This document shows positions 7,940 through 25,408 of a stretch of DNA of 64,000 bases, piece after piece. Positions within the stretch are counted from its first letter, which is position 1. Each line of letters begins with the position of its first letter. The notes below the pieces were generated by a model. The model made no database searches, was not told where the DNA came from, and worked only from the letters and a program-made list of their open reading frames with translations. Where the stretch lies: assembly GCA_963675595.2 (NCBI GenBank), contig CAXXLZ010000002.1:1440001-1504000 (forward strand), in the 5' to 3' direction. This DNA is from Thermodesulfobacteriota bacterium. GTDB taxonomy: Bacteria; Desulfobacterota; Desulfarculia; JACQYL01. Both the position numbers and the translations under genes were made by a program.

Positions 7940-10006
7940 ATGACAAAACGAATTTGTTGTCTCGCCCTGACCCTTGGATTATTGGCCGTATCGATAGGTT
8001 CGCATGCTTTTGAAACCATCCGGGGGACCACGGAGCTCAGGTACTGGGATTCGGCCAACACGTACAACGGGTGCACCTTGTTCGCGGGAGAGGAAACCAC
8101 CTACCTCATCGACATGCAGGGGAATCTTGTAAACCTATGGCCCATCGGCACGAACCCTCGTTTTCTGGAAAACGGGCATCTTCTTGACCGGGCGAGGGAT
8201 GAACAAGGCAGGCTGCGAGGAATGCAGGAACTGGATTGGGAAGGAACACCCGTCTGGTCGTTCTATGAAACGCGCGAGGACTACGTTCCTCATCACGACT
8301 TCGTCCGTATCTACAACAAGAAGCTGGGTGCCTACACCACCCTGTACATCGCCAACAAGCGTATTTCCAACGAAGAGGCCTTGGCGGCGGGGGCGAATCC
8401 TGAAGACGGACCCTATGACGGCTCCTCCATGGACGCCGTCGTGGAGATCGACATGGCGGGCAATGTGGTCTGGGAATGGTGGTTTTTCGACCACATGGTG
8501 CAGGATATCGACCCAACCAAGCCCAATTACGTGGGAGAAGGCCGTTCCATTTCCGATTATCCGAACCGCCTCAACCTGAACCTGCCGGGAAGACCGCTGC
8601 GCTGGGACTGGCTGCACTGCAATTCCCTCGATTACAATCCCCAACTGGACCAAATCGTCATCAACTCCGTATTCGGCGAGTTCTACGTCATCGACCACGG
8701 CGCGACGTTCATCCCCGACGATCCTGCGGGAAGCATCGCGGCCGCCGCAGGTCCGGGCGGTGACTTTCTCTATCGATTCGGAGATCCGGCAAAGTACGAG
8801 CAGGGGGATCCGCCCCACATCTTGGAGGACTGGTCCCAATCTTCCGCCGGCAACAAACAAATCGGCGGCTCCCACGATATCCAGTGGATTCGTCCCGGAT
8901 TACAGGGAGAGGGACACTTTCTCGTCTTTAATAATGGGCAACTGCTTTTCGAACGGCTCGCGCAATCTTCCATCCTCGAAATCAATCCCTACTTGAACGC
9001 TTCGGGCATTGACACCGGAACCTATGTGAACCCTCCCCAGTCCGGCTACCATGAGTGGCCGCCGGAGGAAGAACGTACCACCCAAACCCAGGTGAAGCTG
9101 CTGTCCAATCAAGTTGTCTGGATTTACGCCTCCCGCAGCAACCAGAGTTTCGCAAGCCATATCGGATCCGGTTGCCAACGTCTTCCCAACGGGAACACGC
9201 TCATCTGCGCCATGACCGAGGGACACATCTTTGAGATTACGAGCGAAGGCAAACCGGTATGGGAATACGTGAGCCCCGTGACGACCGACGGAATCCTCAA
9301 AATAATCACGGATAATCCACCCAACTACAATGCGATGTTCAGGGCCTATCGTTATGGACCGGATCACCCGGCCTTGGCGGGTCGCGACTTGACCGGCGCG
9401 GCACCTATCACGGACTTATTGAGCGGGCATTCCACCGACGGCGCTTGGTCATGTGCCGACGGAGACACGATGTACTTCCAGTCCTATGCGCCCGAAGGCG
9501 CCGTCTGTCTTATCACCGCCGCCGATGGAGGACTCGCCGCGTTTTCGGGATCGGTGCAGCCGGGCCCTGTGTTTCAAGGAATCGAAGCGGCAGGGGACGG
9601 AGAAGCCTCCATACGAATTTCATTCACCTCTTCCGGGGAAGCGGTCTACACCTTCCTCGACGGCTCCGGTGAGCCCGGCCAATCATTCCAGGCCTCCAAA
9701 AAGGCCCAATCCAGGTCCGCGGCCGCCATGGACGGGATATGGAAGAGCGACACCCAACCCTTAGGTAATTTTCTATTTCAGAGCTACATGGACGGCAGTG
9801 CCGTGCTGATTCACAGCTTGGACGGAACGACTCAAACGGTTTTTTTTGACTCAGCCGCTTATTCCGGGGGCTTCCAAGGGCATGCCGTAACAGGGGAATC
9901 TTCTTCCCGGGCGGAATTCCAAACAAACGAGGAGACGGGAGTCATCGTTATCAAGAACGATGACGGCGAGGAGACTTCCTACGAAGTGGAACGGTTCTTC
10001 CGATAA
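7940..10006 (+). CDS. secreted aryl-sulfate sulfotransferase (ASST)-like protein with two C-terminal ~98-aa repeats
   Basis: signal peptide; PHHDF, EIDMAGNVVWEW, DWLHCNSLDYNP, HDIQW, QRLPNGNTLI, VWEY and FRAYRY motifs typical of ASST beta-propellers. Confidence 0.8.
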   Translation: MTKRICCLALTLGLLAVSIGSHAFETIRGTTELRYWDSANTYNGCTLFAGEETTYLIDMQGNLVNLWPIGTNPRFLENGHLLDRARDEQGRLRGMQELDWEGTPVWSFYETREDYVPHHDFVRIYNKKLGAYTTLYIANKRISNEEALAAGANPEDGPYDGSSMDAVVEIDMAGNVVWEWWFFDHMVQDIDPTKPNYVGEGRSISDYPNRLNLNLPGRPLRWDWLHCNSLDYNPQLDQIVINSVFGEFYVIDHGATFIPDDPAGSIAAAAGPGGDFLYRFGDPAKYEQGDPPHILEDWSQSSAGNKQIGGSHDIQWIRPGLQGEGHFLVFNNGQLLFERLAQSSILEINPYLNASGIDTGTYVNPPQSGYHEWPPEEERTTQTQVKLLSNQVVWIYASRSNQSFASHIGSGCQRLPNGNTLICAMTEGHIFEITSEGKPVWEYVSPVTTDGILKIITDNPPNYNAMFRAYRYGPDHPALAGRDLTGAAPITDLLSGHSTDGAWSCADGDTMYFQSYAPEGAVCLITAADGGLAAFSGSVQPGPVFQGIEAAGDGEASIRISFTSSGEAVYTFLDGSGEPGQSFQASKKAQSRSAAAMDGIWKSDTQPLGNFLFQSYMDGSAVLIHSLDGTTQTVFFDSAAYSGGFQGHAVTGESSSRAEFQTNEETGVIVIKNDDGEETSYEVERFFR

Positions 10007-10059
10007 AGGCCGATTAGTGAACGAAACCGACCCGACGGCAAGTTCCGGGAGCACCGCCT

Positions 10060-10845
10060 TTATGCCCTGTAATCGAAATAAAGCGTCTCCAGACCGCGTT
10101 CTTCGTCGACCGCATAGGTATCCACCACGGTCCCGAACCGTTCTTGGTAGGCCCGAATGATTTCTCCCGAAGTGGAACTAAACCCTTCGAGTCGTTTCCT
10201 ATGCGATGCGGAAGTGTTGTTGAACTGCACCACGCGTCGATGTTCGGAACAGAGAACGGCGGCGTCTCGCATTTCGCCGTGCCGATGAAACACATATACT
10301 TTTTCCTCGGCTCGGGCCTTTCCTTGGAAGGAAAAGGAGAGGATCCCCTTTTTGGACAAAGCTGAACCGTTTTCGTTGATGAGCGCGGCGTACTTTCCAC
10401 GCAATGCGGAAATGTCCTCCACGAAAAAGTACGCCTTATCCACACTGTTTTCCACGTCCCATCCCAGGCCGTAGAACCGCAGATTGGGGTCGAAAAAGAG
10501 TTCCTGCTCCAAAGGCACCTCTTTTTCCGACAAGACCCTCTCCGCAACCGCGGCCGGCTCCGAAGCACCGCACAGGGTGCCGTAGGCCAGACGGCTGGAA
10601 TTGGCTATCCCTCTGAGAGTGTCCACCTTATGGCTGTAAGAAAAAAGGCTGAACTGGTCTGACAGCAGCCGGGTGTCCGCCGAATGCCGAATGCAGCAGT
10701 CAATGTATTCCAGTTCGGTCGAGGTGAGGGCGCTCCCAAAATCGAAAAATCGTTCACAGTGCCAATCGAACAACCGCCTTTGATAGTCCAACCACTCGTT
10801 CTTGTTGAAAACAAAGTCTCTGCCCATGAAGTGAACGACTTTCAT
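10060..10845 (-). CDS. hypothetical protein, possible LynF/TruF/PatF-like (ABBA-fold) prenyltransferase
   Basis: 261-aa ORF with GGGAG RBS, 22 bp downstream of the ABC gene; the CDS is well supported, the function rests on motif resemblance only. Confidence 0.7.
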   Translation of the reverse strand: MKVVHFMGRDFVFNKNEWLDYQRRLFDWHCERFFDFGSALTSTELEYIDCCIRHSADTRLLSDQFSLFSYSHKVDTLRGIANSSRLAYGTLCGASEPAAVAERVLSEKEVPLEQELFFDPNLRFYGLGWDVENSVDKAYFFVEDISALRGKYAALINENGSALSKKGILSFSFQGKARAEEKVYVFHRHGEMRDAAVLCSEHRRVVQFNNTSASHRKRLEGFSSTSGEIIRAYQERFGTVVDTYAVDEERGLETLYFDYRA

Positions 10846-10867
10846 TAATTCTCCCGCTCGGGAAAGA

Positions 10868-12526
10868 TCACAATTCGATGATCCGGTCGAAGCGCTTGGC
10901 CACCGCGTAGGAATGAGTGATGCAGAGGATGGTCACAGGCTTGAACAGCTCCAGTATTTCCTCGACGATAAACCGTTCCGTCTCCGGGTCCAGCGACGAG
11001 GTAAATTCATCCAATACCAGAACCTGCGGCTCGCGGATAAGGGCTCGGGCCAGGGCCAGTCTCTGGGCCTGGCCGCCCGATAGGTTGAAACCGTCCTCTC
11101 CCACCACCGTGTCCAAACCCTCGGGAAGAGTCTGAACCAAAGACTCCAGGCGCACCAGCCGCACGGCCTCCAGGACCTTGTCCATGGGCACGTCGCCCCA
11201 TCCGAAAGAGATGTTGTCTTTCAAGGGCATTTTGAAGATGTAGGATTGCTGACGAACATAGGAGATGGAGTATAGATACAACGGCAGAGGAATGGCGCTG
11301 ATGTCCCTGCCTCCCATCAAGATGACGCCTTCCGTGGGTGTCAGGTATCTAAGAAGCAGGTTGACCAGGGTCGTTTTCCCCCTGCCGCTGGCACCCATGA
11401 TTGCCGCCTTCTCACCCGGATGGACTGAAAATGAGAGATTGGACAGGATGGGCGTACCCGGCTTGTATGCAAAACACACGTTCCTGAACTCGATCGAATT
11501 CTCGTCGGGAAGATCAAGGACGTCACGGACCTCGGCCACAGATTCCTCGGGATAGTCGTGTATCTCCGTGAGGCGCGCCAAGGAAGGCTCGATGCGCAGG
11601 AATTCATTATATCCCACGGAAAGCTCCTGCAGCATGTCCGCAAAGAGCATGAGGTAAATATTGTAGGCCACGATCATACCGATGGTGATGCCGCCCACGT
11701 CCAGGGCGTAGAGAAATCCACCGATGATGAAGGGCAGGAAAAGAATCAGGCTGCCGAGATTCTCGGACAAATACTCCGTGAGATAGAACACATTCAGGAA
11801 TCGAAGGTTAGCCTCCTTGTAACCCCCAACCCGCTCGCCCAGAAGCCCGAAGATCTTCTTGAACTGCTGATAAAAGCGAATCTCGCCGTATCCCTGAAAT
11901 ACGTCCAGGAGCAGGTTGTTCTGGCTGGTAAGGGTCTCCTTGGCGCGCCGCCCTCGCGCCAGGGTCAGCGGTTCCAGCAAAGCCAGTAGAAGCAGCAAAA
12001 CGGGTATGCCCACCAGAGCCAGCAAAGCCAACAACCAATTCCAGGCAAACATGAAGGCCATGATTACGGCGGCCAGGGCCGCATTGGTCAGGCATTTGGC
12101 GAAGTACTTATGGAAAAACGTAGCAATGAGGTCCAGATCCAGACTCATCCGAGTGATCAGGTCGCTCGCGTCGAAGGCGGTGAAGACATGAACCGCTTTG
12201 CGGCGCATGAGATCGTCCAGCAACCTCATCTTGTACTCGGCGAAAACCGTCTCGTTGGCCTTCAGGTAGACACGCAGCGCCAGGATTAGAACCAAGTACG
12301 CCGCCAGGATCAGGCCTACGATGAGGGCCGTGTATTGGAAAAGCAAAGAGATGGATTTCCGAGGAATGATGTCGTCCACGAAGGCCGACAATACTTGGGG
12401 GATGAGTCCCGATAGAACCGCCGCGGGTGCGACCAGAACGAAGAAAAGGACAAAGGCCCGCCGCCGGCGGGCGATTTCAGGGCCGAACAATTGTCTGATT
12501 TGGCCGATCGTCTGGGAGAGGCGCAT
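10868..12526 (-). CDS. ABC exporter, fused permease/ATP-binding protein
   Basis: multi-TM N-terminus; Walker A GASGRGKT, signature LSGGQ, Walker B VLVLDE, H-loop ITH; no N-terminal C39 peptidase. Confidence 0.93.
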   Translation of the reverse strand: MRLSQTIGQIRQLFGPEIARRRRAFVLFFVLVAPAAVLSGLIPQVLSAFVDDIIPRKSISLLFQYTALIVGLILAAYLVLILALRVYLKANETVFAEYKMRLLDDLMRRKAVHVFTAFDASDLITRMSLDLDLIATFFHKYFAKCLTNAALAAVIMAFMFAWNWLLALLALVGIPVLLLLLALLEPLTLARGRRAKETLTSQNNLLLDVFQGYGEIRFYQQFKKIFGLLGERVGGYKEANLRFLNVFYLTEYLSENLGSLILFLPFIIGGFLYALDVGGITIGMIVAYNIYLMLFADMLQELSVGYNEFLRIEPSLARLTEIHDYPEESVAEVRDVLDLPDENSIEFRNVCFAYKPGTPILSNLSFSVHPGEKAAIMGASGRGKTTLVNLLLRYLTPTEGVILMGGRDISAIPLPLYLYSISYVRQQSYIFKMPLKDNISFGWGDVPMDKVLEAVRLVRLESLVQTLPEGLDTVVGEDGFNLSGGQAQRLALARALIREPQVLVLDEFTSSLDPETERFIVEEILELFKPVTILCITHSYAVAKRFDRIIEL

Positions 12527-12608
12527 GAGAGTGCCCGATCAGTAACATGAACCGGCGTTGTCGATGTGCGATCGCTTCAGCGGAATAGGAGCCGTGTTTT
12601 CAAACCCG

Positions 12609-12638
12609 AACATGCCTCTAAGAGCCGTTTCTTGTCAA
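12609..12638 (-). promoter_or_regulatory. putative sigma70 promoter for the ABC exporter operon
   Basis: TTGACA (12638-12633), 18-bp spacer, weak -10 CATGTT. Confidence 0.35.
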
Positions 12639-12708
12639 GTGAGGAAGTTCCGACCATCTTCAATTCGTCGAATCGTCACACACCGCCATCCGTCCGAGTG
12701 CCGGAGAA

Positions 12709-15700
12709 TCAAGCCTCCGCCCGGTTCCGAATCGATTCACTTGTTCGGGATAAAACGGACCTCACCGTCGCCCCCAAGTCCCGCATGGTGAAGGGCTTCT
12801 GAAGAAAATGAACTCCCTCGTCCAGCACCCCGTGCCGAGCGATGGCATCGGCCGTATAGCCTGAAATGAACACGCTTCTGAGATCCGAGTATCGCGCTGA
12901 AATCCGGTCGGTCAACTCCCTGCCGTTCATTTCGGGCATGACCACGTCCGTCATGAGCAGATGGATGTCTCCATCGTGTGCCTCCGCCATGCGGATGGCC
13001 TCACTCGGAGTGCCGGCGGACAACACCCGATACCCCAACCTTTCAAGCATGGCCCTCACCATCTTCAGCATGGCCGCCTCATCCTCCACCAGAAGTATGG
13101 TCTCCCTGCCCGTGGCCGGCGCTGCGGTCTCTGTTTTGTTCCGAGTCTCCTCCGAGGCGGCGGTTTCGTGCCTGGGGAAATAGATTCGGAACATCGCTCC
13201 GTTGCCCGGCTCGCTGTGAACATTGATCATACCGTTATTCTGTTTGACGATGCCGTAGACCGTGGCCAGACCGAGCCCCGTGCCTTTGCCCACTCCCTTG
13301 GTGGTGAAGAAAGGCTCGAAGAGATTGCGTCGTGTTTCCTCGTCCATGCCGCATCCGCTGTCACGCACGGACAACAGCACGTATCCGCCGGAAATGTGGG
13401 CCTCATGGTTCGAATAGTAATCGTCGTCCACGACCACGTTCCTGGTCTCGATGACGACCTTCCCCACACCCGCAATGGCGTCTCGCGCGTTGACGCACAG
13501 ATTGGCCAGAACCTGATCGATCTGACCGGGATCCACCTTTACAGGCCACAAGTTCTTGCCCGGAAGCCAAGCCAGGTCGATGTCTTCACCGATGAGCCGT
13601 CGCAACATCTTGAGCATACCTTCCACGGTCTCGTTGAGATCGAGCACCTCCGGACTGATGGTCTGCTTACGTGCAAAGGCGAGAAGCTGGCGTGTCAAAT
13701 CGGCGGAACGCCGGGCGGCTTTCAGGATTTCCTGAAGGTCGGCGAAGAGCGGCTCTGCGCGATCCGTTTGTGCGATGGCCAATTCCGTGTGACCCAGAAT
13801 CACGCCCAACATGTTGTTGAAGTCGTGAGCCACTCCTCCGGCCAAACGGCCCACGGATTCCATCTTCTGAGCCTGGGTCAACTGAGCCTGCAACTGCTCT
13901 CGTTCTTCTTCGGCCCTCTTGCGTTCGGTAATATCCGTCGCCACCGCGAGAAGCCGATCGCAAGAACCATCTTCCTCGACCAAGGGCAGTTTTGCGATGG
14001 ACAGGCAATGGACGGAGCCGTCGGCAAAGGTGAGCTTCTGTTCCGGAACCCGAAGTATCCGTCTCTCCTGAACGACTTGAAGATCATCCTTTCTGCACTC
14101 TTCGATTTCTTCCGAAGAAGGACTGAATTCGGAATCCGCGTGCCCCTCAAGCCCCGTTTTGGTTGTTCCATAGGCCGCACAAAGCGCGCTGTTGGCCAAT
14201 GAATAGACCCCTTGAACGTCTTTTACGCCGATAAGCGCCGGCACCGCGTCGATGACCCGACGCAGGAAATCCCTGTGGTTCTGCAGCGCCCGTTCCACCC
14301 GTTTACTTTCCGTGATGTCGGTGCCGATTCCACACAAAGCCACGGGACGCCCATTCTCGTCGTTGATGGTGTGCGTTCGGCAATCCAATAAGATGGGGGT
14401 TCCATCAAAGCGGTAGTCGACCACCTCACCCCGCCATTCACCGTGCTTCAAGGTTTCGCGGATGATCATGTCCTGGATCCTGCCGACAGCGGGATTCTCA
14501 CTGGGAATGACGATACGCCGGCCGATGAGTTGATCCCGGGTCAGGCCTATCATTCGACACTCGGCATCGTTCACGTAGGTAACACGCCCGTCCAGGTCGG
14601 TCACGGTAACTATATCCCGAATCTGGTTGAGTACGCGTGACTGGAATCTCAGTTGTTCCTCGTTTTGTTTGCGTTCGGTGATGTCGATGGCCGTTGCGGA
14701 GATATAGGCGGGATTGCCGGAAGCGTCTCGGATCAACATGGCGTTCATGAGCGAAGGGAAAACAGACCCGTCCCGCCGTTTATGCCACACCTCCTCGGCA
14801 TGGAAACCGCCCTCCCCCAAGATACGATCGAGAAGCGCGCTGACCCCGGGCATCTGCTCATCGCAGTGAAAAACGGAGAGATGCCGGCCGAGCAGTTCCT
14901 GAGGGTCCCAGCCGTGTAGGCGTCCAAAGGCCTCGTTCACATACAGTATGACACCTTCCGTGGATGCGATGGCGGTACCGTAGTTGGCTTTGTCCGCGAT
15001 TGTTCTAAATTTCCGCAGCTCTTCGAGAACCGTGGTTCTCTCCGAGAGAGCCCGCGATAGTCGAATCGAGCTGTAACTGAGGGAAGCGATCAAGGCGGCC
15101 AGGCCCGCATAAAACGAAATAGCCGCATCCACCTTTTCCCGGCTCCAGCGGGGCACGCGCTCGAAGGCTGCGATATACTCTTCCTCATCGAACCCATACT
15201 CACGCGCCTGGCTCCGGAAGGTTTCCACGTCCGGAGTCTCGTCTTCGTAAAAATATTGTCCCAAAAAGATGTTGCCCACATGCCGGCCTCCCACTTCGAT
15301 GGGAGTGACGATGTCCCAAAGGTTGTTCTTGCAGCGATAGGCCTTGAAGGTTCCGGCCGGCACGCCTCCGGACAACATCGTGTCGCTTTCCAGGCAATTC
15401 CGACAACTGTCCGGGTGAATTCTATGAAACTTCGTACAGATGTCCTGCCATCCTACCGCCACCAGCACTTCGCCGGAAACGTCAAGCAAAGCGCTGCTGA
15501 TATCGGTCAGCCGATGGAAGTCCTCCATGATGGTCTGCAGCGACCGGGAGTCGATGATATCGGCAAGGCTCAAGGAGCCGAGGTCCCCTTCCGGTTCAAG
15601 GATGGCCTGCAGTTTCTTCCGGACTTCACTTTCCCGATCCCGAAGCGCCTCCTCCGCCTTCCTGCGTTCCGTAATATCACTGAGAAAATTGAGGGTAGCC

Positions 15701-17283
15701 GCTTTTCCCTGCCATTGAATGGAAACGACATTGAGTTCCACCCATCGCACGTCGCCCGGACGACGTATGATCCTGAAGGCGTACCGGGATGGAAGCGCCA
15801 CTCCCTCCAATCGTTGCCGGTGTCGGTCCAGCACAAAGGCCACATCGTCCGGGTGCATGAATTCAACGAAAGGTCTGGAGAGGAGCTCTTCCCGTGAGTA
15901 TCCGGTGACCTCTTCCGCATTGGCATTGACAAATTTCAGCCTTCCGTCTTGAGCCACAAAGATCGCCTCTCCGGCGTGTTCCACCAGAATCCGGTATTTC
16001 TCCTCGCTCTCGCGCAGGGCTTTCTCGGCGCCGCGCATACGGCCGATCATGGTGCCGAGCAAAATCGACAACCCGGCCAACACCATGATCACAACCAGGG
16101 TGGGCACCAGGACGTTGCCGTGCTTCCCCCAAATGGAGACGGGCCGATTGATCACTTTCGCCTCGGGAGGCCAAGCGCTTTCGGGAATATCAAAGCGGGA
16201 CAACACCCGGTAGTCCAAGACCGGATGGGATACGCTGGGCTCAACGGCAATACGGGAAGGCGCTTCGCCGGCCAGCACTCTAAGTGCCAATCCACCGGCC
16301 TGTTTACCGTGTTCTTGACCCTCCAACAACATGCCCCCGACGATGCCGTACCCCAACCTTGTTTCATGCATGGCGTAGACCGGCACCGGACTCAGAGAAG
16401 AAATCAGGCGAGTACTCTCTTCCCGAGTGTAGGTGCGGCCGGTCCGGTCCGTTACGTACGTCAGGATCATCACCACACCATCGCTCGGCATCGCTTTCAA
16501 CTCCCGAGTCAGGCCTTCCAAGGAGTCGTCCGAAGAGTATACCACCTCCACTTTTCCGTCGAATTGAGGCAGGACTTTCTCCATTTCCCTGCGAACCGCC
16601 AGTCCGCTCGCCATATGGTCATGAATCGCCAAAACGGTTCTCACGCCGGGTTGCATCCTCATCGCCATTTGGAGGGTGCCCGCCATATCCTCCCTTTCGG
16701 CCACCCCCGTGATGTTGGCCCGGCCTGCGATCATTTCGGGCCGGAATCCGTTGACCCCGGCGAAGACCACCGGAACATCGGGAAAGAGCTCACTTCCGTG
16801 TTGGAGCATCAAGTCGAAGGCCGGGTTGTCGAGAACCATGACCAGGTCCGGAGAATGGTCACGATATTTTTCGGAAAGACGTCTTTCCATCCGATCCAAA
16901 TCATCAGGCGAATGAAAACGTTTGGCGTCCAGGTGTTCAATGTACGGAACCAAATTTGGATATCGCGCCCGGAGCACGCTCAGGACACCCGATATTTCGT
17001 GGTCCGACCAGGCCTCGCCCTGATGGTAGGAGTTCAGGATCAGGACCGAAGGGATGTCCGAACCGGCGCATAGCCCCCCCCCGACCGCGATGATCGCCGA
17101 GAATACGAAAACGAGCGTCGCCGCGAGGCATACGACCGCAAAAGACGTTCTCCGCGACACCTGCCGCCACACCGTCTCCGAAAAGACTTCCGAACCGGCA
17201 GGTCCGAGGAGACACGCCGCTCTTTCGAAGGCCGGTTTACGGCCCTTCCGCACGATGAACCGCAAGGAGTTCTTCCTCATCAT
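12709..17283 (-). CDS. membrane hybrid sensor kinase (periplasmic ABC-SBP-like domain, PAS, PocR, 3xPAS, HisKA, HATPase, REC)
   Basis: [10 protein letters not shown] periplasmic domain; Poc[12 protein letters not shown]...YRCKNNL; [12 protein letters not shown]; [15 protein letters not shown]; ILLVEDE...LLMTDVVMP; true start may lie downstream. Confidence 0.92.
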
Positions 17284-17504
17284 AGTCCTCCTTCCGGCGA
17301 ACTCACAGCCGTTCTAAGCGCTTCAACACGGTTCTCAAACGTCTTCGATCATTCATCCCCGAAAATGCACCCTAGGACGGCGATTCGCATGAGAGTTCAA
17401 AGCGGGAAATTACTCATGGTCCCCGTCCAAGCCTTATCTAATTCACTTCCGATCAATATTTGCTGCAAAGGAACGGCTTGGGACTCCTCCGCGCGAAGCC
17501 CTTT

Positions 17505-19508
17505 TCATGCCCGTTCGCAGTCTCCCATGTCCCGCAGACACGCGACCAACCGGGTTCCTTCCATGGGACGATGTCGGACGTTGACATAGACGGCAAAGAG
17601 GCTTCCGTCCTTGCGTCGGTGACGGGAAATGAACCGATCCCCACCCTGATCAAGAACCCTTCTGATGCGCGCTTCCGTGTCCCGGGGCGTATGGGCCACG
17701 TCCAATTCCCCGAAATACATTCCCACCAGTTCTTCCTCGCTGTAACCGCTCATTCGGCAGTAGCTCTCGTTGGCTTCCAGCACGAAGCCACGGTCGTCAA
17801 GAATAAGAAATCCGTCCATGACGGGTGCCGGCTCCGTCCGATACCGCTCTTCCTTTCCCCTGAGCCCTCCTCCGGCCCGACTCTTCTGCAAGGCCAGCGC
17901 CGCCAGTCGTCCGAAAGACTCGGCCATGCGCAGATCGTCCTCTGTGAATCCGTCGGGCTTATTGGCAAACCCCATGACACCCGCAGTCTTGTTCTGAATC
18001 CGCATGGGCACGAACATCACGTTCTTCAGGTTCACATGTCCGGATGGCAGGTAAGCGGCCCACGTTCCGTTCATGAAATCGTTGTCCAAGACCGGACATC
18101 CCGTCTCGGAGGCTTCTCTTTCAAGGCCCTGGACCGGCATGGGGAAGCTCGGGTCAACACTGCAGGGAAGGCCCCCGGACTCGAGCAGCAGCATTTCATT
18201 CTCTTCGCCGCCTGCACGAAGCAGGGAGAAGTAGCCCGACTGAGCCCCGATCAGGTCCCGGGCTTTGTTGAAGATACGTCCGGCCGCACGATTGAAGTCC
18301 TCCTCATCGAGCACGCTCCCGGCACCCGCGAGGAGAAATTCCAGTTCTCTCTCTCTACGGTTCAAATCACGCCTCATCCGATCCCGCTCCATCTCGCCCC
18401 GTTTGTATCGGGTGATATCGGAGAAGATGCAACCGAATTGTCTGCGCCCGGGTCGAAAAGCCCGCACTTTGAAATGCCTGTCCAATTCGGCGCAATAGTT
18501 CTCAAAGCTGATCGGCTTGCCGGTCACCACTACACTGCCGTAAGCCTGGACCCAATGGGGCTCCACACCGGGCAGGACTTCCAGTACCGTCTTTCCCAAG
18601 ATATCGTGGGCCTTCAGCCCCGTCAGTCTCTCAAAGGCCGGATTGACGGACAAAAAGCGATAGTCGGACGGTTGCTCCCGTGCGTCGAAAATGATTTCGT
18701 GCAGTGCCAAGCCGTCCGGCATTTCATGAAACAGGATTTCGTAGTCTTTCTCCAAACGACGAAGTTCGGTTACGTCCCGCCCTATCGACAAGACGGACTC
18801 TACCGCACCGTCCGAATCGAACTCCGGAAGAAACCGCCACTCGAAAATGATCCAACCCTGTTTTCCCTCCAGAGAAAACTCCGTGTCGAAATAGGCACCG
18901 TTCTCGCATACTCGGCGAATCGCATCGTCCACTTGGGCACAAACGGGTTCGGGAAAACCAAGCTCTCGTTGCGTTCTTCCCATCATATGGGAGGAAGAGA
19001 TTCCAGTGGCCACTTCCGCATCACGGGATACGAAGAGATGTCTTCCCTCTCGGTCATACCGAATCACCACTCCCGGCATGCTCTGAAGAAGCGACCTATG
19101 TGCCTCCTCCTTTTGCTTCAGTAAGTTCTCGGCCTGTACCCGCTCATTGTCCAATATGCGGTTGCGGCGGATCATTTGGCTGATATTCAGAGCCAGAAGT
19201 CCGATTTCATCCCCACGGCGGCATAAGTGCTCCGGTAAAGGATCGAGACGGTTTTCCGCAGGTCGCAGGTGTACCGACAGCTCCTCGAGAGGACCAACGA
19301 TTCCGCGTTGCAGAAGACACCAGACGGCGGCAATCAAAACGAAGTCGAAAGCGGCGATGGAAAACGGGAGCGAGAACAGTGTCCGGGATTGGAAGCCCGT
19401 TTCAGGGACCACCAGAGTCAAAGCAATGTGCGTCACCGCAAGAACGATCGAAATCAGAACAACTCGCAATGTAAGAGACATAGTGGAACCCGAAAATCTG
19501 CGTATCAA
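17505..19508 (-). CDS. 2TM-HAMP-PAS-PAS-GAF-PAS sensor protein without output domain (possibly truncated kinase)
   Basis: two TM helices, HAMP (RGDEIGLLA), PAS/GAF motifs; stops right after the last PAC (LRDMGDCERA*); alternative start ATG 19481. Confidence 0.75.
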   Translation of the reverse strand: MIRRFSGSTMSLTLRVVLISIVLAVTHIALTLVVPETGFQSRTLFSLPFSIAAFDFVLIAAVWCLLQRGIVGPLEELSVHLRPAENRLDPLPEHLCRRGDEIGLLALNISQMIRRNRILDNERVQAENLLKQKEEAHRSLLQSMPGVVIRYDREGRHLFVSRDAEVATGISSSHMMGRTQRELGFPEPVCAQVDDAIRRVCENGAYFDTEFSLEGKQGWIIFEWRFLPEFDSDGAVESVLSIGRDVTELRRLEKDYEILFHEMPDGLALHEIIFDAREQPSDYRFLSVNPAFERLTGLKAHDILGKTVLEVLPGVEPHWVQAYGSVVVTGKPISFENYCAELDRHFKVRAFRPGRRQFGCIFSDITRYKRGEMERDRMRRDLNRRERELEFLLAGAGSVLDEEDFNRAAGRIFNKARDLIGAQSGYFSLLRAGGEENEMLLLESGGLPCSVDPSFPMPVQGLEREASETGCPVLDNDFMNGTWAAYLPSGHVNLKNVMFVPMRIQNKTAGVMGFANKPDGFTEDDLRMAESFGRLAALALQKSRAGGGLRGKEERYRTEPAPVMDGFLILDDRGFVLEANESYCRMSGYSEEELVGMYFGELDVAHTPRDTEARIRRVLDQGGDRFISRHRRKDGSLFAVYVNVRHRPMEGTRLVACLRDMGDCERA

Positions 19509-19782
19509 GAATGAAGGCCATCCGTTCGTCGTCGAACGAAAACATGAAGAGATCGGACTTCATCGAAACGCTTGTCGGCCTCCCTTGGTGTGAGGGGCCG
19601 AGAAAGCGTTTCGAAAAACGATGGTATCGTGGTCAACCGGTTTTCCATTGGGCTGAAAAGGTGCCTGTAGAGATTCCGACCCGCGTCGGAAGCGCTGTAA
19701 ACCTTTCTCGTCGTCCAACGTGAGAACCTGCTCCGGGCGAATCTCCTCAAATCGAGCCGCGTTGTTTCCGGAGCGGTGCCCA

Positions 19783-20298
19783 TCAGTGCATCAGCTGTGA
19801 GGTATCGAACTCCTTTTCCGCGAGTACCCGATCAATATCGAGCAGGACCTTGATGCTTCCCGCGGCCTTGGCGATTCCCAGTATGTATTCATTGTCGAGT
19901 TCGGCTCCAAAGGAAGGAGTGTCCTCGATTTCGCCCTCTCTGATGTTCAGCACTTCCGATACGGAATCCACCACGAGTCCCATTTCCAGTCGTCCGCGTT
20001 CGCTTTCCGTTTCCACCACCACAATACAGGTGCGGCTAGTGAATTCCTTCGCCTCCATTCCGAACCGTAACCTGAGATCCAGCACCGGAATGACCTTACC
20101 CCTCAAATTGATGACCCCCTTCACATACTCGGGGGTTCTCGGAATCGGAGTAATGGACATCACGCCGATAATCTCTCTGATTTTCATAATCCCGATGCCA
20201 AATTCCTCGCCGGCCAGGGAGAAAGTGAGATATTTTCCGGTCTTGTCGTCCGGATGTCCCTGATCATGAAACTCCCCGCCCCTCGGTCTCGCTTCCAT
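19783..20298 (-). CDS. cheW: chemotaxis adaptor CheW
   Basis: KYLTFSLAGEEFGI, PEYVKGVINLRGKVIPVLDLR, GLVVDSVSEV; AGGAGG RBS. Confidence 0.95.
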   Translation of the reverse strand: MEARPRGGEFHDQGHPDDKTGKYLTFSLAGEEFGIGIMKIREIIGVMSITPIPRTPEYVKGVINLRGKVIPVLDLRLRFGMEAKEFTSRTCIVVVETESERGRLEMGLVVDSVSEVLNIREGEIEDTPSFGAELDNEYILGIAKAAGSIKVLLDIDRVLAEKEFDTSQLMH

Positions 20299-20512
20299 TC
20301 ACATTCCTCCTTTTGATTCTCCGGATGTTCGCCTTCCGACGCCCATTCGGCGCCATAGGCCCCCGCCGCCTCATGCAGTTCCTTCGGAACCTCTTTTCCG
20401 GTAAAGACCCGGAGAAGGCCCGTTTGCGATTTTAGTACTCGCGGGTAAGGTTCGGGCATTCCCAACAATATCCCACCGGACGGTTCCGCACTCCTCGCCG
20501 GCCGTTCAAGTG

Positions 20513-20528
20513 TGCAAGCATCAGGCCG
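20513..20528 (-). promoter_or_regulatory. putative sigma54 (-24/-12) promoter upstream of cheW
   Basis: minus strand CGGCCTGATGCTTGCA = GG-N10-GC with TTGCA. Confidence 0.4.
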
Positions 20529-20985
20529 GCTCCAGCGTCTCGCCTCGCGAATCACTCGGCTCGCCCGAAAGTACGAAGCCGATGCAAAGCCGTGGCGGGT
20601 CTTAAAGCTTAATGAAGAAAAGGTTCGGACATAGATGACAATAAGACTGAAAATAAAGTCCCACGGCGGGCAGTCGTTGTTGTTACTTGCGGCATGGGCG
20701 AATTATGGTCGATACGCTTCGCTTTTCGTGAATTCCCGATTCAAGAGGTAGGAAATGGTCTTACCGCAGACAGATGAAGAAATGCGCGCGCGAGGTCTTT
20801 GGAAGAGGACTTCCGGTATACCGCAGTGGGTTATGCCTCTCCCGACTGTCCTGCAAATCGGACCCCGGGAATTGAAGCACGCTGATATACTCGGGTAACC
20901 TATTAATCTTAAATCAGAACCTTGAGAGTCTCTCAAACCGGACATGTCCAGTTTATTGGACACCGGCATTCGCTGGGCGGTTCGT

Positions 20986-22190
20986 TCACGCCTCCTGCCG
21001 GGTGAATTTCTTGCATAGTTCAAGCCGGTAAGGAACCCGATCCTCGAGCCCGGCCTCCTGGAGATAAATCAAATCAAGTTGAGGCCGACGGGATTCATCT
21101 CCCGTGTCGTTCAGATGCCGTTCCAACACATCGGCCGCGTGCAGCGCGGTCAGGACACTGAAACCGCTGTCCGATGCGTCTCCCGGGTTATGATGATACG
21201 CGATCGCTTGAACAACATCGCTCCGAAGTCCCCAGATCGCGGTCAGATAGGCTCCGAGGGTTGCGTGGGTCGTATCGAAAACCCTTTGCTCGGCAGCGCC
21301 CTCCGAAAGATCGTCCGATTCGCAGACTTGATTTACCGCCTCGTACCCGCCGGGAGAATTCATAGCCAAAATCAGCTTGCCGATATCATGCAGTAATCCC
21401 GACAAGAACGCGCGATCTCCAAGCCCGGCGTCGTGCGACTCGGCCATGGCGATGGCTTTGGCCATGGAAGCGACGGCAAGACCGTGATCCCACAGCCGAT
21501 TCGCGGACAGCCCTTTAACGCGTTTCGGGTCGAATTGCTCGAATACCTGGACGGCAAGAGCCGGCGACTTGACCGTATCCAGACCGAGCAAATTGACCGC
21601 TTGGCCGGCGCTCGAAACATGAGTGTAGAGACCGAAGAAAGCCGAATTGACGAGTTGGAGTATTTTCGCCGTCATACCCAGCTCTCTTGAGATCACCTCA
21701 CCAACCTTCGAGATCGACGGATCCGTCGACTGCAGCACCTCCATGATCTCCCGGTACAGGCTGGGTAGGCAGGGCAGTGTTTGCAGTTTCGAAGCCATTT
21801 CGATCAAGCTTTCGTCGGTCGGCATGTCTCGGACCGTACAGGCTTGCCGGACGGTATTGATCAACGTATCCGGATCGCACGGTTTTGCGAGAAACTGGTG
21901 AGCGCATTTTGTGACTTTCAAGTTCAGATCCGTATTCGACTGACCCGAAAGAACGATGCGAACCACGGCGGGCCGGCGTCTCGCCACTTCCGCCAAGAGC
22001 TCCGGTCCACTCATGCCCGGCATACGCATATCGGTCACAAGCACATCGATCTCTTCCGCCCCCAGTTTTTCCAGAGCTTCGGCGCCACTTAAGGCGAACG
22101 TCATCTCCCAGCCGGGTTTTCGCGAAGAAGGTTCCGACGTAGCCCACGAATCAACTCCTTGTCGTCGTCCACAAACAGTACTTTTTTCAC
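20986..22190 (-). pseudogene. REC-HDOD response regulator with a 1-nt frameshift near 22117-22120
   Basis: GTG 22190 overlaps the upstream TGA and reads MKKVLFVDDDKELIRGLRRNLLRE; the continuation GWEMTFALSG... is in another frame; colinear with intact paralog 35785-36987; may be a sequencing error. Confidence 0.8.
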
Positions 22191-25100
22191 GCTTCCAACC
22201 TTTCCAGCCCTTTCATGTCCGACTCATAGGGCAGCCGAATTCGAAAGGTGGTTCCCACGCCGGACTCGGTTTCGCACCAGATCTTCCCTTGGTGCCGTTC
22301 GACGATCACCGCGTGCGCCAGAGAGAGGCCCTGCCCGGTGCCTTTGCCGACTTCCTTGGTCGTGAAAAACGGATCGAAAATCCGGTCTTTGATCCCTTCC
22401 GGAATGCCTCCGCCGTTGTCCGTTACGCTGATCTCACATTCCCCGCCCAGGTTCTCCGTCTTGATCCTGATGAGACCCTTGTAGCCTTTGTACTTGTTGC
22501 CCATCTCACCGATGGCCTGGGACGCATTGACGATCAGGTTGAGAATCACCTGATTCAGCTCGCCCACGTAACATGGAACCAGGGGTATGGTGACGTCGGG
22601 ATCGGTTTCCATGTCCGCGACGTATTTCCACTCGTTTCTGGACACGGTAATCGTATTGGAGATACTCGCGTTAATATCCGACAAGGTCTTTTCGTCCGTG
22701 CCCGGATGAGAAAAATTCTTCATGGCGAGAACAATGCTCGACACCCGCTTCAGCCCATCCAAGGTTTCTTCGAGACTGGACGGAACTTCCTCCATCAGGA
22801 ACTCCAAATCAATATCCCGGGCGACGTCATCCACTTGATCCAGTGCCGTTCTCATAGCCTCTCGATCGTCAAGATTGTCCCGCAGTTCTTGATACTTATC
22901 CAGCAGCAGGGTAAGCCCTGAGAACGCCTCCTGGAGGAAACTCATGTTGTGGGTGACGAATTGCGTCGGCGTGTTGATTTCATGGGCGATGCCGGCGGCC
23001 AGTTGGCCTATGGATTCCAGCTTTTGGGCCTGCGCCAGTTGACGCTCCAGTCGAATCTGGTCCGTAATGTCGTTCCCCATGATGAGGATTCCCTTGAAAA
23101 GCCCTCCCCCTCCCCCCATCTCAACCGGGGTGACCACAATACTCAGGACTCCTTGTTTCCCTTGGGGATTGGTAAAGTTCACCTGTTCATTCCGGACCGG
23201 GCCCCCGTCCCGTCCGCACCGCAACAGGTTCTTTTCCATAACGTCCAGATCCAGGGCGATCGGACACTCGGAAAAGGGTTTTCCCAACACATCCTTTTCT
23301 TCAACGCCGAAGGCCTCCTCCGCGGCCCTGTTCCATCTGAAAACAAGGTTCTCCGACGTCAACCCGATAAGAATGGATGGAATGGCGGCCAGCAACTGCT
23401 GTATTTCGGCGTGAGCTTCGCGTAGGGAGCGCTCAGCGGATTTCCTCTCCGAAATATCCTGCATCACGCCCACGATGCCGGCGGCCCGGCCGCGTCGATC
23501 TCGGTAAAGCGCTTTGTTGAGGAGAATTTCGTGTTCCTTTCCATCCCGCATACGCATTTGAGTCTCGAATATCTGAACGCCCTCTTCATGCAGCAACTTC
23601 CGGTCCCAATCCCGAAACAGGAGCCCCGTCTCTTCGGACGAAAAATCCGTGAAGTTCCGGCCGATGATGTCATTTCGCTCTTTTCCGATCATGCTTTCGA
23701 ACGCTTTGTTGCATCCCTGGAAGATCAGGTCCTTGTTCTTGTAATAGATCGGGTTGGGGATGGCGTCCATCAAAGCCTGAAGGAAGTGAAGATTTTCTTT
23801 GTTCTGGTCTTCGGCCCGTTTTCTTTCCGTCGTGTTGTTGGCGAGGATGAGAAGCTCGGAACGACCGCCCTCTGAACTGAATACCGGGTTGAGAATGACG
23901 TCGTAATATTCCGCTTCCCCCTGACGGCTGAAGACGGCGAAATCATGCAGTTGAACGGGTGTTCCTTGCTTGCGAACGTCCGATAGACAGAGCCTCAATT
24001 GTTCCCATCCGGCTCCAAGGAGGGCGTCGTCGATCCTGCGGCCGACCACTTCGCTCTCCACCAGGCCCACGGCCTTCTCAGCGGCTTTGTTCCAGCGAGT
24101 GATGCGCCCCTCGCCGTCGAGGCCGATCAGCATGGAAGGTATCGACTCGAGAAGAAGACAGATATCTCGGTGGGTTTCGTACCGATCCCTCTCGGCCTCC
24201 TTGAGCCGAGTGATGTCCCTGTACATGAGGATTCTACCCAACCACCCCCCCTCACTGTCGAAATACGGAGTCTCGGTAACCAGAAAATCCCCGCCAAGCC
24301 GTTCATCATGCATTTCGTTCGTAATACTCTGCTCGGCGGTATCCGGACGAATTTGAGGGCAATCGACACATAGGTCTTCAAATCCCTTGACGATCTCATA
24401 GCAGGGGGCTCCGACACACTCGTCCGCCGGGCGATCTATGCGCTCGGCCATGGAACGATTGATCCGCTTGATCCGAAAATCCCCGCCGATCAGGGCAATC
24501 AGGTCCGGCACGGCATCGAACGTACGTTCCCATTCGTCTTTCGCCGCCAGCAATTGTCGTTCCAGTGTTTTCGTGGAAGTCACGTCGAAGAGCACCCCAT
24601 CGACGTGATGAAATCGGCCCTCATCCGAAAAGACCGGAGCGCCCCGATCCTGCACCCAAACAACTTCACCGTCTCTTCGCCGAATTCGGTATTCAACGAT
24701 GAATCCCTGCCTGCCGAGAATCGCTTGGCCGAACACCCGCTTGACCATATCGACGTCTTCTTCCACCATCGCCTGACGCCACCGCATTCCTCCACTGCTG
24801 AGTTCTTCGGCCGTATACCCGGTGAGAGGCTCGATCTTGGAGTCGAGAAATTGGAGTTCGCCGTTGGCGCCGCGCGTGTACACCACTCCCGGCAGGTTGG
24901 CCACCAAATTGCGATAGGTCTCTTCCTTCAGTCTCAGCTCGGCTTCTCGGGTGCGCAGGTCATCAACCGTGCTCAACAGCTGGATGGTACGATTGGAGAG
25001 TTGCTCCTCCAACAGGTGCGTTCTCTCTCGGCTTTCGAGTTCAAGTTCTCGACGTCTTAAGCCGTTGGCCACGGCGATGGAGAGCTCCGTCCTGGAAAAC

Positions 25101-25408
25101 GGCTTTGTCAGGTATCCATAGGCACCGAGATCCAGCACCCGCGCGGTGATATCTTCGTCCTGAACCCCGCTGGCCATGACCACCGCGATATCCGGCGCCT
25201 TTCCCCCTATTTCCTCCAACAGTTCCATTCCGGAACCGCCGGGCATCCTTATGTCCATGAGGACCAATTCCGGAACATCGGCCGCAATCTTTTCCCGTGC
25301 TTCCGCAACGCTTGCGGCGCCGTCGCAGGTATGCCCCTGTTGGTTGAGCTGTGCCCGCATCCTCTTCCGGATGAGTTCCTCATCGTCCACGATCAATATC
25401 TTGGCCAT
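22187..25408 (-). CDS. REC-5xPAS histidine kinase (NtrB-like H-box)
   Basis: MAKILIVDDE receiver; PAS repeats; QLAAGIAHEINTPTQF; FFTTKEVGKGTGQGL. Confidence 0.92.
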   Translation of the reverse strand: MAKILIVDDEELIRKRMRAQLNQQGHTCDGAASVAEAREKIAADVPELVLMDIRMPGGSGMELLEEIGGKAPDIAVVMASGVQDEDITARVLDLGAYGYLTKPFSRTELSIAVANGLRRRELELESRERTHLLEEQLSNRTIQLLSTVDDLRTREAELRLKEETYRNLVANLPGVVYTRGANGELQFLDSKIEPLTGYTAEELSSGGMRWRQAMVEEDVDMVKRVFGQAILGRQGFIVEYRIRRRDGEVVWVQDRGAPVFSDEGRFHHVDGVLFDVTSTKTLERQLLAAKDEWERTFDAVPDLIALIGGDFRIKRINRSMAERIDRPADECVGAPCYEIVKGFEDLCVDCPQIRPDTAEQSITNEMHDERLGGDFLVTETPYFDSEGGWLGRILMYRDITRLKEAERDRYETHRDICLLLESIPSMLIGLDGEGRITRWNKAAEKAVGLVESEVVGRRIDDALLGAGWEQLRLCLSDVRKQGTPVQLHDFAVFSRQGEAEYYDVILNPVFSSEGGRSELLILANNTTERKRAEDQNKENLHFLQALMDAIPNPIYYKNKDLIFQGCNKAFESMIGKERNDIIGRNFTDFSSEETGLLFRDWDRKLLHEEGVQIFETQMRMRDGKEHEILLNKALYRDRRGRAAGIVGVMQDISERKSAERSLREAHAEIQQLLAAIPSILIGLTSENLVFRWNRAAEEAFGVEEKDVLGKPFSECPIALDLDVMEKNLLRCGRDGGPVRNEQVNFTNPQGKQGVLSIVVTPVEMGGGGGLFKGILIMGNDITDQIRLERQLAQAQKLESIGQLAAGIAHEINTPTQFVTHNMSFLQEAFSGLTLLLDKYQELRDNLDDREAMRTALDQVDDVARDIDLEFLMEEVPSSLEETLDGLKRVSSIVLAMKNFSHPGTDEKTLSDINASISNTITVSRNEWKYVADMETDPDVTIPLVPCYVGELNQVILNLIVNASQAIGEMGNKYKGYKGLIRIKTENLGGECEISVTDNGGGIPEGIKDRIFDPFFTTKEVGKGTGQGLSLAHAVIVERHQGKIWCETESGVGTTFRIRLPYESDMKGLERLEA

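Follow-up and report, generated by a model that had tools for sequence, protein, structure and literature searches.

A compact predicted ABBA-barrel protein of an undescribed family encoded beside an ABC exporter in a Thermodesulfobacteriota bacterium

Introduction

ABBA prenyltransferases are widely used for the late-stage lipidation of drugs and peptides, and the known ABBA families are few, their sources being mostly actinomycetes, fungi, and cyanobacteria. The described enzymes closest to the protein reported here are those of the cyanobactin F type (KgpF, LimF, PagF, PirF, PatF, and DciF), which are soluble, single-domain proteins with an alpha-beta-beta-alpha PT barrel. The aromatic ABBA enzymes (CymD, PriB, IptA, NphB, EpzP, and CloQ) share the same fold but are proteins of 290–430 aa with a complete helical shell, and their genes are usually found in secondary-metabolite clusters. 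As stated in a paper on PagF, ABBA enzymes neutralise the diphosphate by basic residues together with hydrogen bonds from tyrosines, and PagF has 10 helices (PMC7973389). The F-type enzymes are described as more open, with enclosing elements missing (PMC13290415). With regard to transport, the exporters to be compared are CydDC, MsbA, and the NHLP-bacteriocin exporters, which have in common the TMD-NBD half-transporter architecture with intact ATPase motifs.

Here we report the analysis of a two-gene cassette in a window of 64,000 nucleotides (the whole stretch of DNA that was analysed) from a Thermodesulfobacteriota bacterium. The cassette encodes a 261-aa orphan with a predicted ABBA barrel and a 552-aa ABC exporter. 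The orphan shares with the F-type enzymes the barrel, the solubility, the single-domain organization, and the small size, being about 30–40 residues shorter still, and differs from them in being partnered with an ABC exporter, with neither PatA/PatG-type proteases nor a precursor nearby. The search of the locus for a cyanobactin cluster, including PatA/PatG-type proteases and a PatE-type precursor, yielded no subtilase and no credible precursor, in agreement with the initial annotation, which had seen no clear precursor gene. Because the models of the F family were also unmatched, as described below, the cassette is not a cyanobactin system. Unlike the genes for the aromatic ABBA enzymes, the orphan gene is not situated in a secondary-metabolite cluster. 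The exporter has the half-transporter architecture and intact ATPase motifs of the three exporter kinds named above, but it is a single gene, in contrast to the CydD/CydC pair, and is without a C39 peptidase domain.

Results

Organization of the two-gene cassette

The two ORFs and the short gap between them, which the initial annotation had read as a two-gene unit, were confirmed (Table 1), and the Shine-Dalgarno-like element in the gap was located about 8 nt ahead of the ATG. The promoter that had been proposed for the unit itself was not recovered, as a sigma-70 scan of the spacer ahead of the ABC gene gave no site. The only site in the region was within the upstream kinase gene, with 1.4 expected by chance, and nothing in the promoter and terminator scan of the region exceeded chance. 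The cassette is neighboured by genes for sensor kinases, an ASST-like protein, a Na/Pi cotransporter, a binding protein, and a GGDEF protein. The sole relative with an ASST-like neighbour (genome G401) is without the ABC and orphan genes and has no other flank in common.

Table 1. Features of the cassette and its spacers, with positions in the window.
Feature	Position	Strand	Basis
Putative prenyl/alkyl transferase (261 aa, soluble, predicted ABBA/PT barrel; family without annotation)	10060..10845	-	ORF list and AF2 model
Intergenic spacer, 22 bp, with GGGAG ribosome-binding-like element	10846..10867	-	Sequence read directly
552-aa type-I ABC exporter half-transporter (TMD-NBD), no C39 peptidase domain	10868..12526	-	Pfam domains
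Spacer, 182 bp, between the hybrid sensor kinase (upstream) and the ABC gene	12527..12708	-	

The exporter

The 552-aa protein was found by Pfam to have an ABC_membrane domain at residues 26–295 and an ABC_tran domain at residues 361–509. It has five strongly hydrophobic segments, and its Walker A, LSGGQ, Walker B, and H-loop motifs are all intact; the order of TMD and NBD and this set of motifs are those of a type-I ABC exporter. Its earlier description as peptidase-less proved accurate, since Peptidase_C39 was not found in it by Pfam or NCBIfam and the TMD begins right from the protein start; the N-terminal C39 peptidase domain that is a feature of PCATs is absent. The top NCBIfam matches were to CydD, TAP2, the NHLP exporter, and MsbA, all of them under the curated cut-offs (262 bits for CydD, where the cut-off is 435), so that the protein belongs to no named equivalog. 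It presumably works as a homodimer.

Sequence and family of the orphan

The 261-aa protein is devoid of hydrophobic segments, and its sequence gave no significant match in Pfam or NCBIfam, no match in the PDB by phmmer or by the family profile at E up to 10, and nothing in PADLOC or PHROGs. It is therefore, by sequence, the soluble orphan that it had been taken for. Weak Pfam matches to PqqD and Flu_M1_C (E about 0.2) were rejected as noise.

Its proposed kinship with the LynF/TruF/PatF enzymes at the level of sequence family was not upheld. No NCBIfam family was matched at E up to 1, including TIGR04445, which we take to be the model for the LynF/TruF/PatF cyanobactin prenyltransferases, and PF19156 (DUF5838), PF11468 (PTase_Orf2), and PF11991 (Trp_DMAT) were likewise unmatched at E up to 1. 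No prenyltransferase model matched any of 56 aligned family members at E up to 0.1, and the search for PF19156 in five and then six genomes gave no match. The family itself is unannotated and has about 100 representatives, and the source names seen for its members are all "hypothetical protein". The family-profile search at E up to 10 retrieved 45 proteins, all unannotated or "hypothetical", none of which carries a prenyltransferase Pfam domain. In protein-language-model features the orphan is near clusters with PF11468 or PF19156, an observation to be used as a lead only.

Predicted fold

The AF2 model of the orphan (pLDDT 93.7; pTM 0.91) has 10 strands and seven helices of 4 or more residues, arranged as a 10-stranded antiparallel beta-barrel of alpha-alpha-beta-beta repeats wrapped by helices, as is characteristic of the ABBA/PT fold. 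The top Foldseek match of this model was LimF (E 3.5e-6; probability 1.00). In an unbiased structure search of 48,161 chains, ranks 1–19 were all ABBA prenyltransferases, with Z values of 16.2–11.3, followed by a Z of 6.1 at rank 20; accordingly, all 19 chains with a Z of at least 8 are enzymes of this fold. A second structure comparison ranked KgpF (Z 18.7), LimF (17.3), PagF (16.8), and PatF (16.5) highest, and the top 10 entries, which were KgpF, LimF, PagF, PatF, DciF, and PirF, covered Z values of 18.7–14.7 with 228–234 residues aligned, an rmsd of 3.2–4.2, and identities of 10–15% in the structural alignments. Beyond the F type, the best enzyme was CymD (Z 14.5), and Orf2/NphB gave a Z of 12.4; for CymD, PriB, IptA, NphB, EpzP, and CloQ together the range was 14.5–11.3. 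Because all chains at or above a Z of 8 were ABBA prenyltransferases, with those of the F type closest, the assignment of an ABBA/PT barrel in the initial annotation, for which AlphaFold and Foldseek had been named as the check, holds for the predicted structure. The model shares with the F-type enzymes a reduced helical shell, its seven helices comparing with the 10 reported for PagF (PMC7973389). Taken together, the model indicates that the orphan is a compact ABBA barrel nearest to the F-type enzymes by structure, yet it belongs to a separate, undescribed family.

Conserved residues

Across the 56 aligned family sequences, R85 and Y139 are invariant, and conservation reaches at least 90% at K137, E180, K182, Y184, R203, D242, Y256, S71, H72, and D130. 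The conserved polar residues are on strands with i/i+2 spacing, the same residues are retained in all four clades of the family, and the orphan of the window has every family-invariant residue. The five segments that had been likened to motifs of the F-family enzymes fall on the strands that are best conserved within the family of the orphan itself; the conserved positions are W28-H29 in the first, S71-H72 with S83/R85/G89 in the second, G126/G128/W129/D130 with K137/Y139 in the third, and S170 with E180/K182/Y184 and Y256-F257 in the fourth and fifth. This polar, active-site-like constellation is unusually invariant, and the strand periodicity suggests that its Arg/Lys/Tyr set could be the diphosphate site. 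In having strand-borne Lys/Arg/Tyr residues of the kind that binds diphosphate without a DDxxD motif (PMC7973389), the orphan is like the aromatic ABBA enzymes, although PF11991 and PF11468 are unmatched and the protein is smaller.

Pairing with the exporter in other genomes

The pairing of the ABC and orphan genes was found in three genomes, two of which are near-identical strains. In the related strain (97% identical), a single contig of 3333 nt spans positions 9941–12800 of the window with 77 substitutions and no gaps. In the third genome (locus L002), the family protein is 55% identical and the ABC protein 66% identical, and the stop codon of the ABC gene overlaps the start codon of the family gene by 4 nt (ATGA). 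At a further locus (L004), the family gene is downstream of an HlyD-MacB-ABC efflux operon; L028 is most closely related to L004 and lacks an exporter. On contigs equal in length to those of the 52%, 48%, and 45% homologues of the orphan (P0003–P0005), no ABC homologue was found. The search of genome contigs with the close-subfamily alignment found no locus, and loci were obtained with broader and other alignments. The expected linkage to an exporter was thus borne out for the closest homologues, in the 97% strain and L002, which keep the ABC gene directly upstream, but not as a family-wide trait, because only L002 and L004 have an adjacent exporter among 31 other distinct bacterial loci. The ABC pairing is restricted to a small subclade.

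The wider family

The wider family differs from the F-type enzymes in having links to aminopropyltransferase-like genes as well as Tat-exported and giant-virus forms. Of 32 distinct loci, counting that of the window, 13 have BpsA_C or spermidine-synthase-like genes no more than 7 kb away, and in L003, L017, and L024 BpsA_C-like genes are directly ahead of the family gene or overlap it. Furthermore, a spermidine-synthase domain is joined to the family protein in two representatives, both with a GGGDG motif, which we take as bearing on the amine link. The host makes polyamines; its contig 3 carries two genes each of the AdoMet_dc and Spermine_synth types, remote from the cassette, and it has no BpsA_C gene. 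In the clades, which were taken from a quick tree with SH-aLRT support, one group of 18 tree rows has mostly twin-arginine-type signals and another of 13 rows has N-terminal membrane anchors, and both keep the conserved residues. Family copies are also carried by giant viruses, at six distinct loci.

Discussion

The predicted fold and the conserved residues lead us to favour, at a little under even confidence, the reading that the orphan is an isoprenoid-diphosphate-dependent alkyl transferase, the product of which is exported by the ABC partner. The 261-aa enzyme would be cytosolic and co-expressed with a type-I ABC exporter working as a homodimer. Its barrel would bind an isoprenoid diphosphate via the strand residues R85, K137, Y139, K182, Y184, R203, and Y256, and the resulting allylic cation would be transferred to a nucleophile held by a Ser-His pair and acidic residues (S71, H72, D130, E180, and D242), giving a more lipophilic product for export by the transporter. 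The acceptor is not a cyanobactin. Because the cassette has no other biosynthetic gene, it is probably a common cellular metabolite, and the links of the family to aminopropyltransferases make an amine or polyamine the leading candidate. A broader version of this idea, which we consider doubtful, is that polyamines or related amines are the native acceptors throughout, so that a widespread, undescribed ABBA family would make N-prenylated polyamines, exported here by a dedicated ABC pump and produced elsewhere by the same core in SpeE-fused, Tat-directed periplasmic, or giant-virus-encoded form. Such N-prenylated polyamines would be a lipidated polyamine class for which, to our knowledge, no bacterial biosynthetic enzyme is known.

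The alternative that fares best, although we regard it as unlikely, is that the barrel is not a prenyltransferase at all but an ABBA scaffold with some other anionic or lipid ligand, for instance a head group of polyprenyl-diphosphate-linked or phospholipid type, or with another chemistry. In this cassette it would load or modify the substrate of an ABC flippase from the cytosolic side. The Tat-exported and membrane-anchored clades share the conserved residues in settings where soluble prenyl diphosphates would be unexpected, and as the exported forms would be cut off from cytosolic DMAPP/GPP, the common ligand of the family may differ. This alternative is also consistent with the best scores of the exporter, albeit below cut-off, against CydD, MsbA, and PglK-type exporters of lipids or thiols, and with lipid-related neighbours of family genes, namely PI-PLC-like genes (L008 and L009), choline/ethanolamine kinase and ICMT/PEMT-like methyltransferase genes (L003 and L017), MAPEG (L017), and GT2 genes in four of the six giant-virus loci. 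However, these lipid-related genes occur sporadically, and not one of them is kept as a neighbour from clade to clade. Moreover, the solved structures with the ABBA fold in both searches are all prenyltransferases, and the Arg/Lys/Tyr pattern is the classical one for diphosphate (PMC7973389).

A RiPP-type system, in which the barrel prenylates a ribosomal peptide that the ABC exporter secretes, is improbable in our estimation. In its favour, the nearest structures are those of peptide-modifying F-type enzymes, and the small helix number and the openness described for that type (PMC7973389 and PMC13290415) are compatible with it; TPR repeats are present in two family members, both of them long. 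Small Gly/Gln/Phe-rich proteins (137–174 aa) are encoded directly after the family gene in L015, L016, and L020, which belong to other clades. In the window, the minus-strand ORFs of the spacer ahead of the ABC gene are all short (23–28 codons), and one ATG ORF of 24 codons (12539–12613) stops 12 nt short of the ABC start; its ribosome-binding site, however, is poorly spaced. The exporter is without a C39 peptidase, and a protease, a cyclase, and a leader-recognition gene are all absent nearby, in addition to the lack of matches to F-family HMMs. Furthermore, nearly all polar residues of the barrel are invariant across distant lineages, unlike those of enzymes tuned to variable peptides.

Still less probable is that the ABC and orphan genes are functionally unrelated neighbours or that the orphan gene is in decay, for which the small number of genomes with the pair, and the near identity of two of them, could be invoked. 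Co-translation is favoured by the 22-bp spacing in the window and by the 4-nt overlap at the locus of the 55%-identical homologue. Neither gene is disrupted, the related strain shows no indels in them, and the family-invariant residues are all present in the orphan. In addition, neither a sample of 400 further genomes of the phylum nor the 40 nearest relatives yielded the orphan gene. Finally, we considered a non-homologous S-adenosylmethionine decarboxylase feeding aminopropyltransferases, an idea prompted by the invariant Ser-His pair, in which S71 is nearly invariant, and by the fusion or adjacency to aminopropyltransferase-like genes, which resembles known SpeD-SpeE arrangements. It was rejected as scarcely credible. 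The host already has its two canonical AdoMet_dc genes (with no adjacent aminopropyltransferase), two of five other genomes bearing the family also have canonical AdoMet_dc, no AdoMetDC structure was among the best 50 fold matches listed, down to a Z of 3.3, Pfam gave no match, and an exporter partner would be senseless for this role.

The preferred reading of an alkyl transferase with a dedicated exporter concerns a compact ABBA family (about 250 aa) that is unmatched by any Pfam or NCBIfam model and occurs in diverse settings, including the enzyme-plus-exporter cassette, genes fused to or overlapping aminopropyltransferase-like partners, proteins exported by Tat, and copies in giant viruses. 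If its members are prenyltransferases, the acceptors known for the fold would be widened, perhaps to polyamines, and the cassette would provide a two-gene system that is easily expressed and could be screened by exometabolomics. If they are not, they would be the first known case of an ABBA barrel serving another function.

Predicted fold and family of the orphan

The 261-aa orphan gave no significant match in Pfam, NCBIfam, PADLOC or PHROG, and none among PDB sequences with the family profile included. An exhaustive HMMER search recovered 102 cluster representatives of its family at E <= 1e-3, 43 of them at <= 1e-10; all members bearing a source name are termed "hypothetical protein", and none has precomputed Pfam domains. 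In a 56-member alignment, R85 and Y139 (orphan numbering) were invariant, and S66, S71, H72, S83, G89, G126, G128, W129, D130, K137, E180, K182, Y184, R203, D242, T243, Y256 and F257 were at least 90% conserved. With this alignment as input, the AlphaFold2 model of the orphan consisted of ten beta-strands and seven helices, with a mean pLDDT of 93.7 and a pTM of 0.91.

The top PDB matches to the model in Foldseek were LimF, KgpF, PagF and DciF (E 3.5e-6 to 3e-5, probability 1.00), which are cyanobactin peptide prenyltransferases (F-type). In a Foldseek-independent search of 48,161 representative chains, all 19 chains with Z >= 8 were ABBA prenyltransferases (PatF 16.2, DciF 15.6, PagF 15.5, CymD 14.3, down to CloQ 11.3), and rank 20 was an unrelated designed barrel with a Z of 6.1. 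Re-alignment of the top 998 Foldseek chains was led by ten cyanobactin-type entries, including KgpF (Z 18.7, rmsd 3.2, 233 aligned), LimF (17.3), PagF (16.8), PatF (16.5), DciF (15.6) and PirF (14.7), followed by the bacterial DMATS-like CymD (14.5) and PriB (14.1) and then by Orf2/NphB (12.4). Protein-language-model features placed the orphan near clusters with PF11468 or PF19156, a lead only, with a low recognition value. The predicted structure thus indicates that the orphan belongs to a real family with the ABBA fold. The initial annotation had proposed a likeness to LynF/TruF/PatF enzymes, and both the fold and the nearest subfamily held at the structural level; by its NCBIfam and Pfam results, the orphan falls outside the LynF/TruF/PatF family itself.

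The conserved polar residues lie on barrel strands with i/i+2 spacing (S83/R85/A87/G89, G126/G128/D130, K137/Y139 and E180/K182/Y184), and R203 comes just ahead of strand 8, while strands 9 and 10 carry D242 and Y256, respectively. ABBA enzymes neutralise the prenyl diphosphate by basic residues and tyrosine hydrogen bonds (PMC7973389); F-type enzymes also employ Mg2+, and their pocket is more open owing to the absence of enclosing elements (PMC7973389, PMC13290415). The Arg/Lys/Tyr set of the orphan would fit this diphosphate-neutralising pattern, and for the conserved Ser-His pair, together with the acidic E44, D130, E180 and D242, a cationic or protic acceptor would be a suitable partner.

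The two-gene unit and its surroundings

Features of the window, of its genome and of related loci
Feature	Location	Strand	Remark
ABC half-transporter gene, 552 aa	10868-12526	-	ORF
Orphan (PT) gene, 261 aa	10060-10845	-	ORF
24-codon ATG ORF	12539-12613	-	ends 12 nt ahead of ABC start; badly spaced ribosome-binding site
PAS/PocR hybrid histidine kinase, 1524 aa	upstream of ABC, beyond 182-bp spacer	-	domains
Dense signalling-gene block	12709-25507	-	
ASST-like protein, 688 aa	downstream of orphan, convergent		further sensor genes beyond
Two AdoMet_dc and two spermidine-synthase genes	own genome, contig 3, ~69,186-73,331		inside ~4 kb
Small low-complexity proteins, 137-174 aa	L015:8815-9228, L016:1422-1946, L020:5821-6264		directly downstream of PT-like gene

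The ABC and orphan genes are separated by 22 bp, and a GGGAG element precedes the orphan start. The ABC protein is a type-I half-transporter with ABC_membrane (residues 26-295) and ABC_tran (361-509) Pfam domains, intact ATPase motifs and five strongly hydrophobic segments; no C39 peptidase domain was found on it, and no hydrophobic segment was found in the orphan. Its top NCBIfam scores (CydD, 262 bits, then TAP2, NHLP exporter and MsbA) were each far under the curated cut-off, and it was therefore assigned to no named equivalog. These results agree with the two-gene unit of a peptidase-less exporter and a soluble orphan described in the initial annotation. The promoter proposed there for the unit was not recovered, since the promoter scan returned no sigma-70-like site in the 182-bp upstream spacer and none above chance in the region.

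Short ORFs in this spacer have only 23-28 codons and poor ribosome-binding sites, and the 24-codon ORF is the only one of them that might be precursor-like. Within the signalling-gene block, the hybrid kinase combines PAS repeats and a PocR domain with an N-terminus that resembles periplasmic binding proteins, and the other genes encode a PAS/GAF protein, CheW, an HDOD response regulator and a second PAS hybrid kinase.

Conservation and origin of the pairing

From a related strain, a public run yielded one contig of 3333 nt that was colinear with 9941-12800, with 77 substitutions, no gaps and both genes intact. In the metagenome locus L002, the last 68 codons of a gene for a similar type of ABC protein lie ahead of a 55%-identical orphan homologue, with the ABC stop and PT start overlapping as ATGA; a full-length ABC orthologue (66% identical) was found on a 14,052-nt contig, and the L002 homologue likewise lies on a 14,052-nt contig. 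The rows of these sequences formed a supported group in a quick tree (SH-aLRT 95) within a clade of nine rows (SH-aLRT 99). Contigs sized as those holding the representatives P0003, P0004 and P0005 gave no ABC homologue. At the distant locus L004 (33% identical), the PT gene follows an HlyD-MacB-ABC efflux operon, and no such operon was found ahead of the PT gene in its nearest relative, L028. The exporter link is real yet narrow: the pairing with the ABC gene is conserved in the related strain and L002, but an exporter is adjacent in only 3 of the 32 distinct bacterial loci counted after duplicate removal, window included.

The 6.8-Mb genome has one copy of the orphan gene, and none was found in 400 other genomes sampled in the phylum or in the 40 nearest relatives, so the ABC and PT cassette was probably acquired horizontally; base composition did not set it apart. 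Among Vulcanimicrobiota-type genomes, 13 of the 401 sampled carried a PT-like gene. The MAGs holding L013, L014, L015 and L025 are labelled uncultured Burkholderiales. The phylum set from which the genome of L015 (G430) was sampled also includes the Vulcanimicrobiota MAG G429, and the loci of that sample overlap L013, L014 and L025; the record titles and GTDB placement of these MAGs seem to disagree.

Neighbours, fusions and clades of the wider family

Genes with BpsA_C (branched-chain polyamine synthase) or spermidine-synthase domains occurred within 7 kb of the PT gene in 13 of 32 distinct loci, and lay directly ahead of or overlapping it in L003 and L024 as well as in L017, where three paralogues are consecutive. 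Furthermore, in P0031 and P0065 an N-terminal spermidine-synthase domain that carries a GGGDG motif is fused to the ABBA barrel, and P0055 joins TPR repeats and a DOT1-like methyltransferase region to the barrel. A recurrent Vulcanimicrobiota-type neighbourhood contained genes for a GNAT, a ~400-aa TPR protein, a ~560-aa zinc-ribbon protein and a BpsA_C-like protein, and at three such loci a gene for a small Gly/Gln/Phe-rich protein comes right after the PT gene. The small proteins of L015, L016 and L020 are Gly/Gln/Asn/Phe-rich and share a common N-terminus, with a GNAT gene next; their role may be that of substrates or of structural proteins.

A tree clade of 18 rows mostly carries twin-arginine-type signals. 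Such signal peptides, some with lipobox-like ends, were seen in about one-fifth of representatives (a subset of P0034-P0106). Because all conserved residues are kept in this clade, its signals imply that the same protein has a putative periplasmic form. A further clade, with 13 rows, stems from giant-virus contigs (11 IMG/VR loci, 6 distinct) and carries an N-terminal membrane anchor. These loci (L051-L061) are on low G+C contigs, several named GVMAG, with GT2 glycosyltransferases nearby in 4 of the 6 distinct loci and Ulp1-like proteases in 3; at one, an Rce1-like CAAX protease lies directly upstream of the PT-like gene. Judged from sequence, the wider family context points away from cyanobactins.

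Proposed function

The most likely mechanism, which we favour tentatively and at somewhat less than even confidence, is that the orphan would act as an isoprenoid-diphosphate-dependent alkyl transferase whose acceptor is a common nucleophile of the cell, an amine or polyamine being the leading candidate, and that the ABC exporter, probably co-translated with it, would expel the product. Some weight is given to modification of a ribosomal peptide by the barrel, for which the closest structures being peptide-modifying enzymes, the reduced helical shell of the model and the candidate small proteins in other clades all speak, although the window yielded no verified precursor. A non-prenyl or lipid-handling role of the barrel also keeps weight, in view of the exported clades and of lipid-related genes scattered among the neighbours (PI-PLC, choline kinase, ICMT/PEMT-like, MAPEG and GT2); a cytosolic DMAPP or GPP donor is difficult to square with exported forms, and this is the chief argument against the simple alkyl-transfer reading. 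A non-homologous AdoMet decarboxylase was among the ALTERNATIVES weighed, on account of the likeness of the SpeE fusions to SpeD-SpeE fusions, and was rejected: no AdoMet decarboxylase was among the fold matches listed for the model, and canonical AdoMet_dc genes are present in the host outside the window (two, with two spermidine-synthase genes) and in 2 of 5 other PT-bearing genomes. A cyanobactin system was rejected, as the surroundings of the pair showed neither a subtilisin-type protease nor a cyclase or precursor gene. The host genes on contig 3 form a duplicated polyamine biosynthesis cluster distant from the window, and no BpsA_C gene was found in the host genome.

Neither this family nor any bacterial prenyltransferase of polyamines was found described in the literature searched, whose coverage lay outside subscription journals, and the matches listed for prenylated polyamines were only plant N-prenylagmatine and a prenyl-agmatine-containing aeruginosin. 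Natural-product prenyltransferases act on diverse acceptors, whereas the key residues of the orphan's family are near-uniform, being kept almost without exception in all four clades. This uniformity suggests that a single chemistry, and perhaps also a single class of substrates, is conserved across the family.
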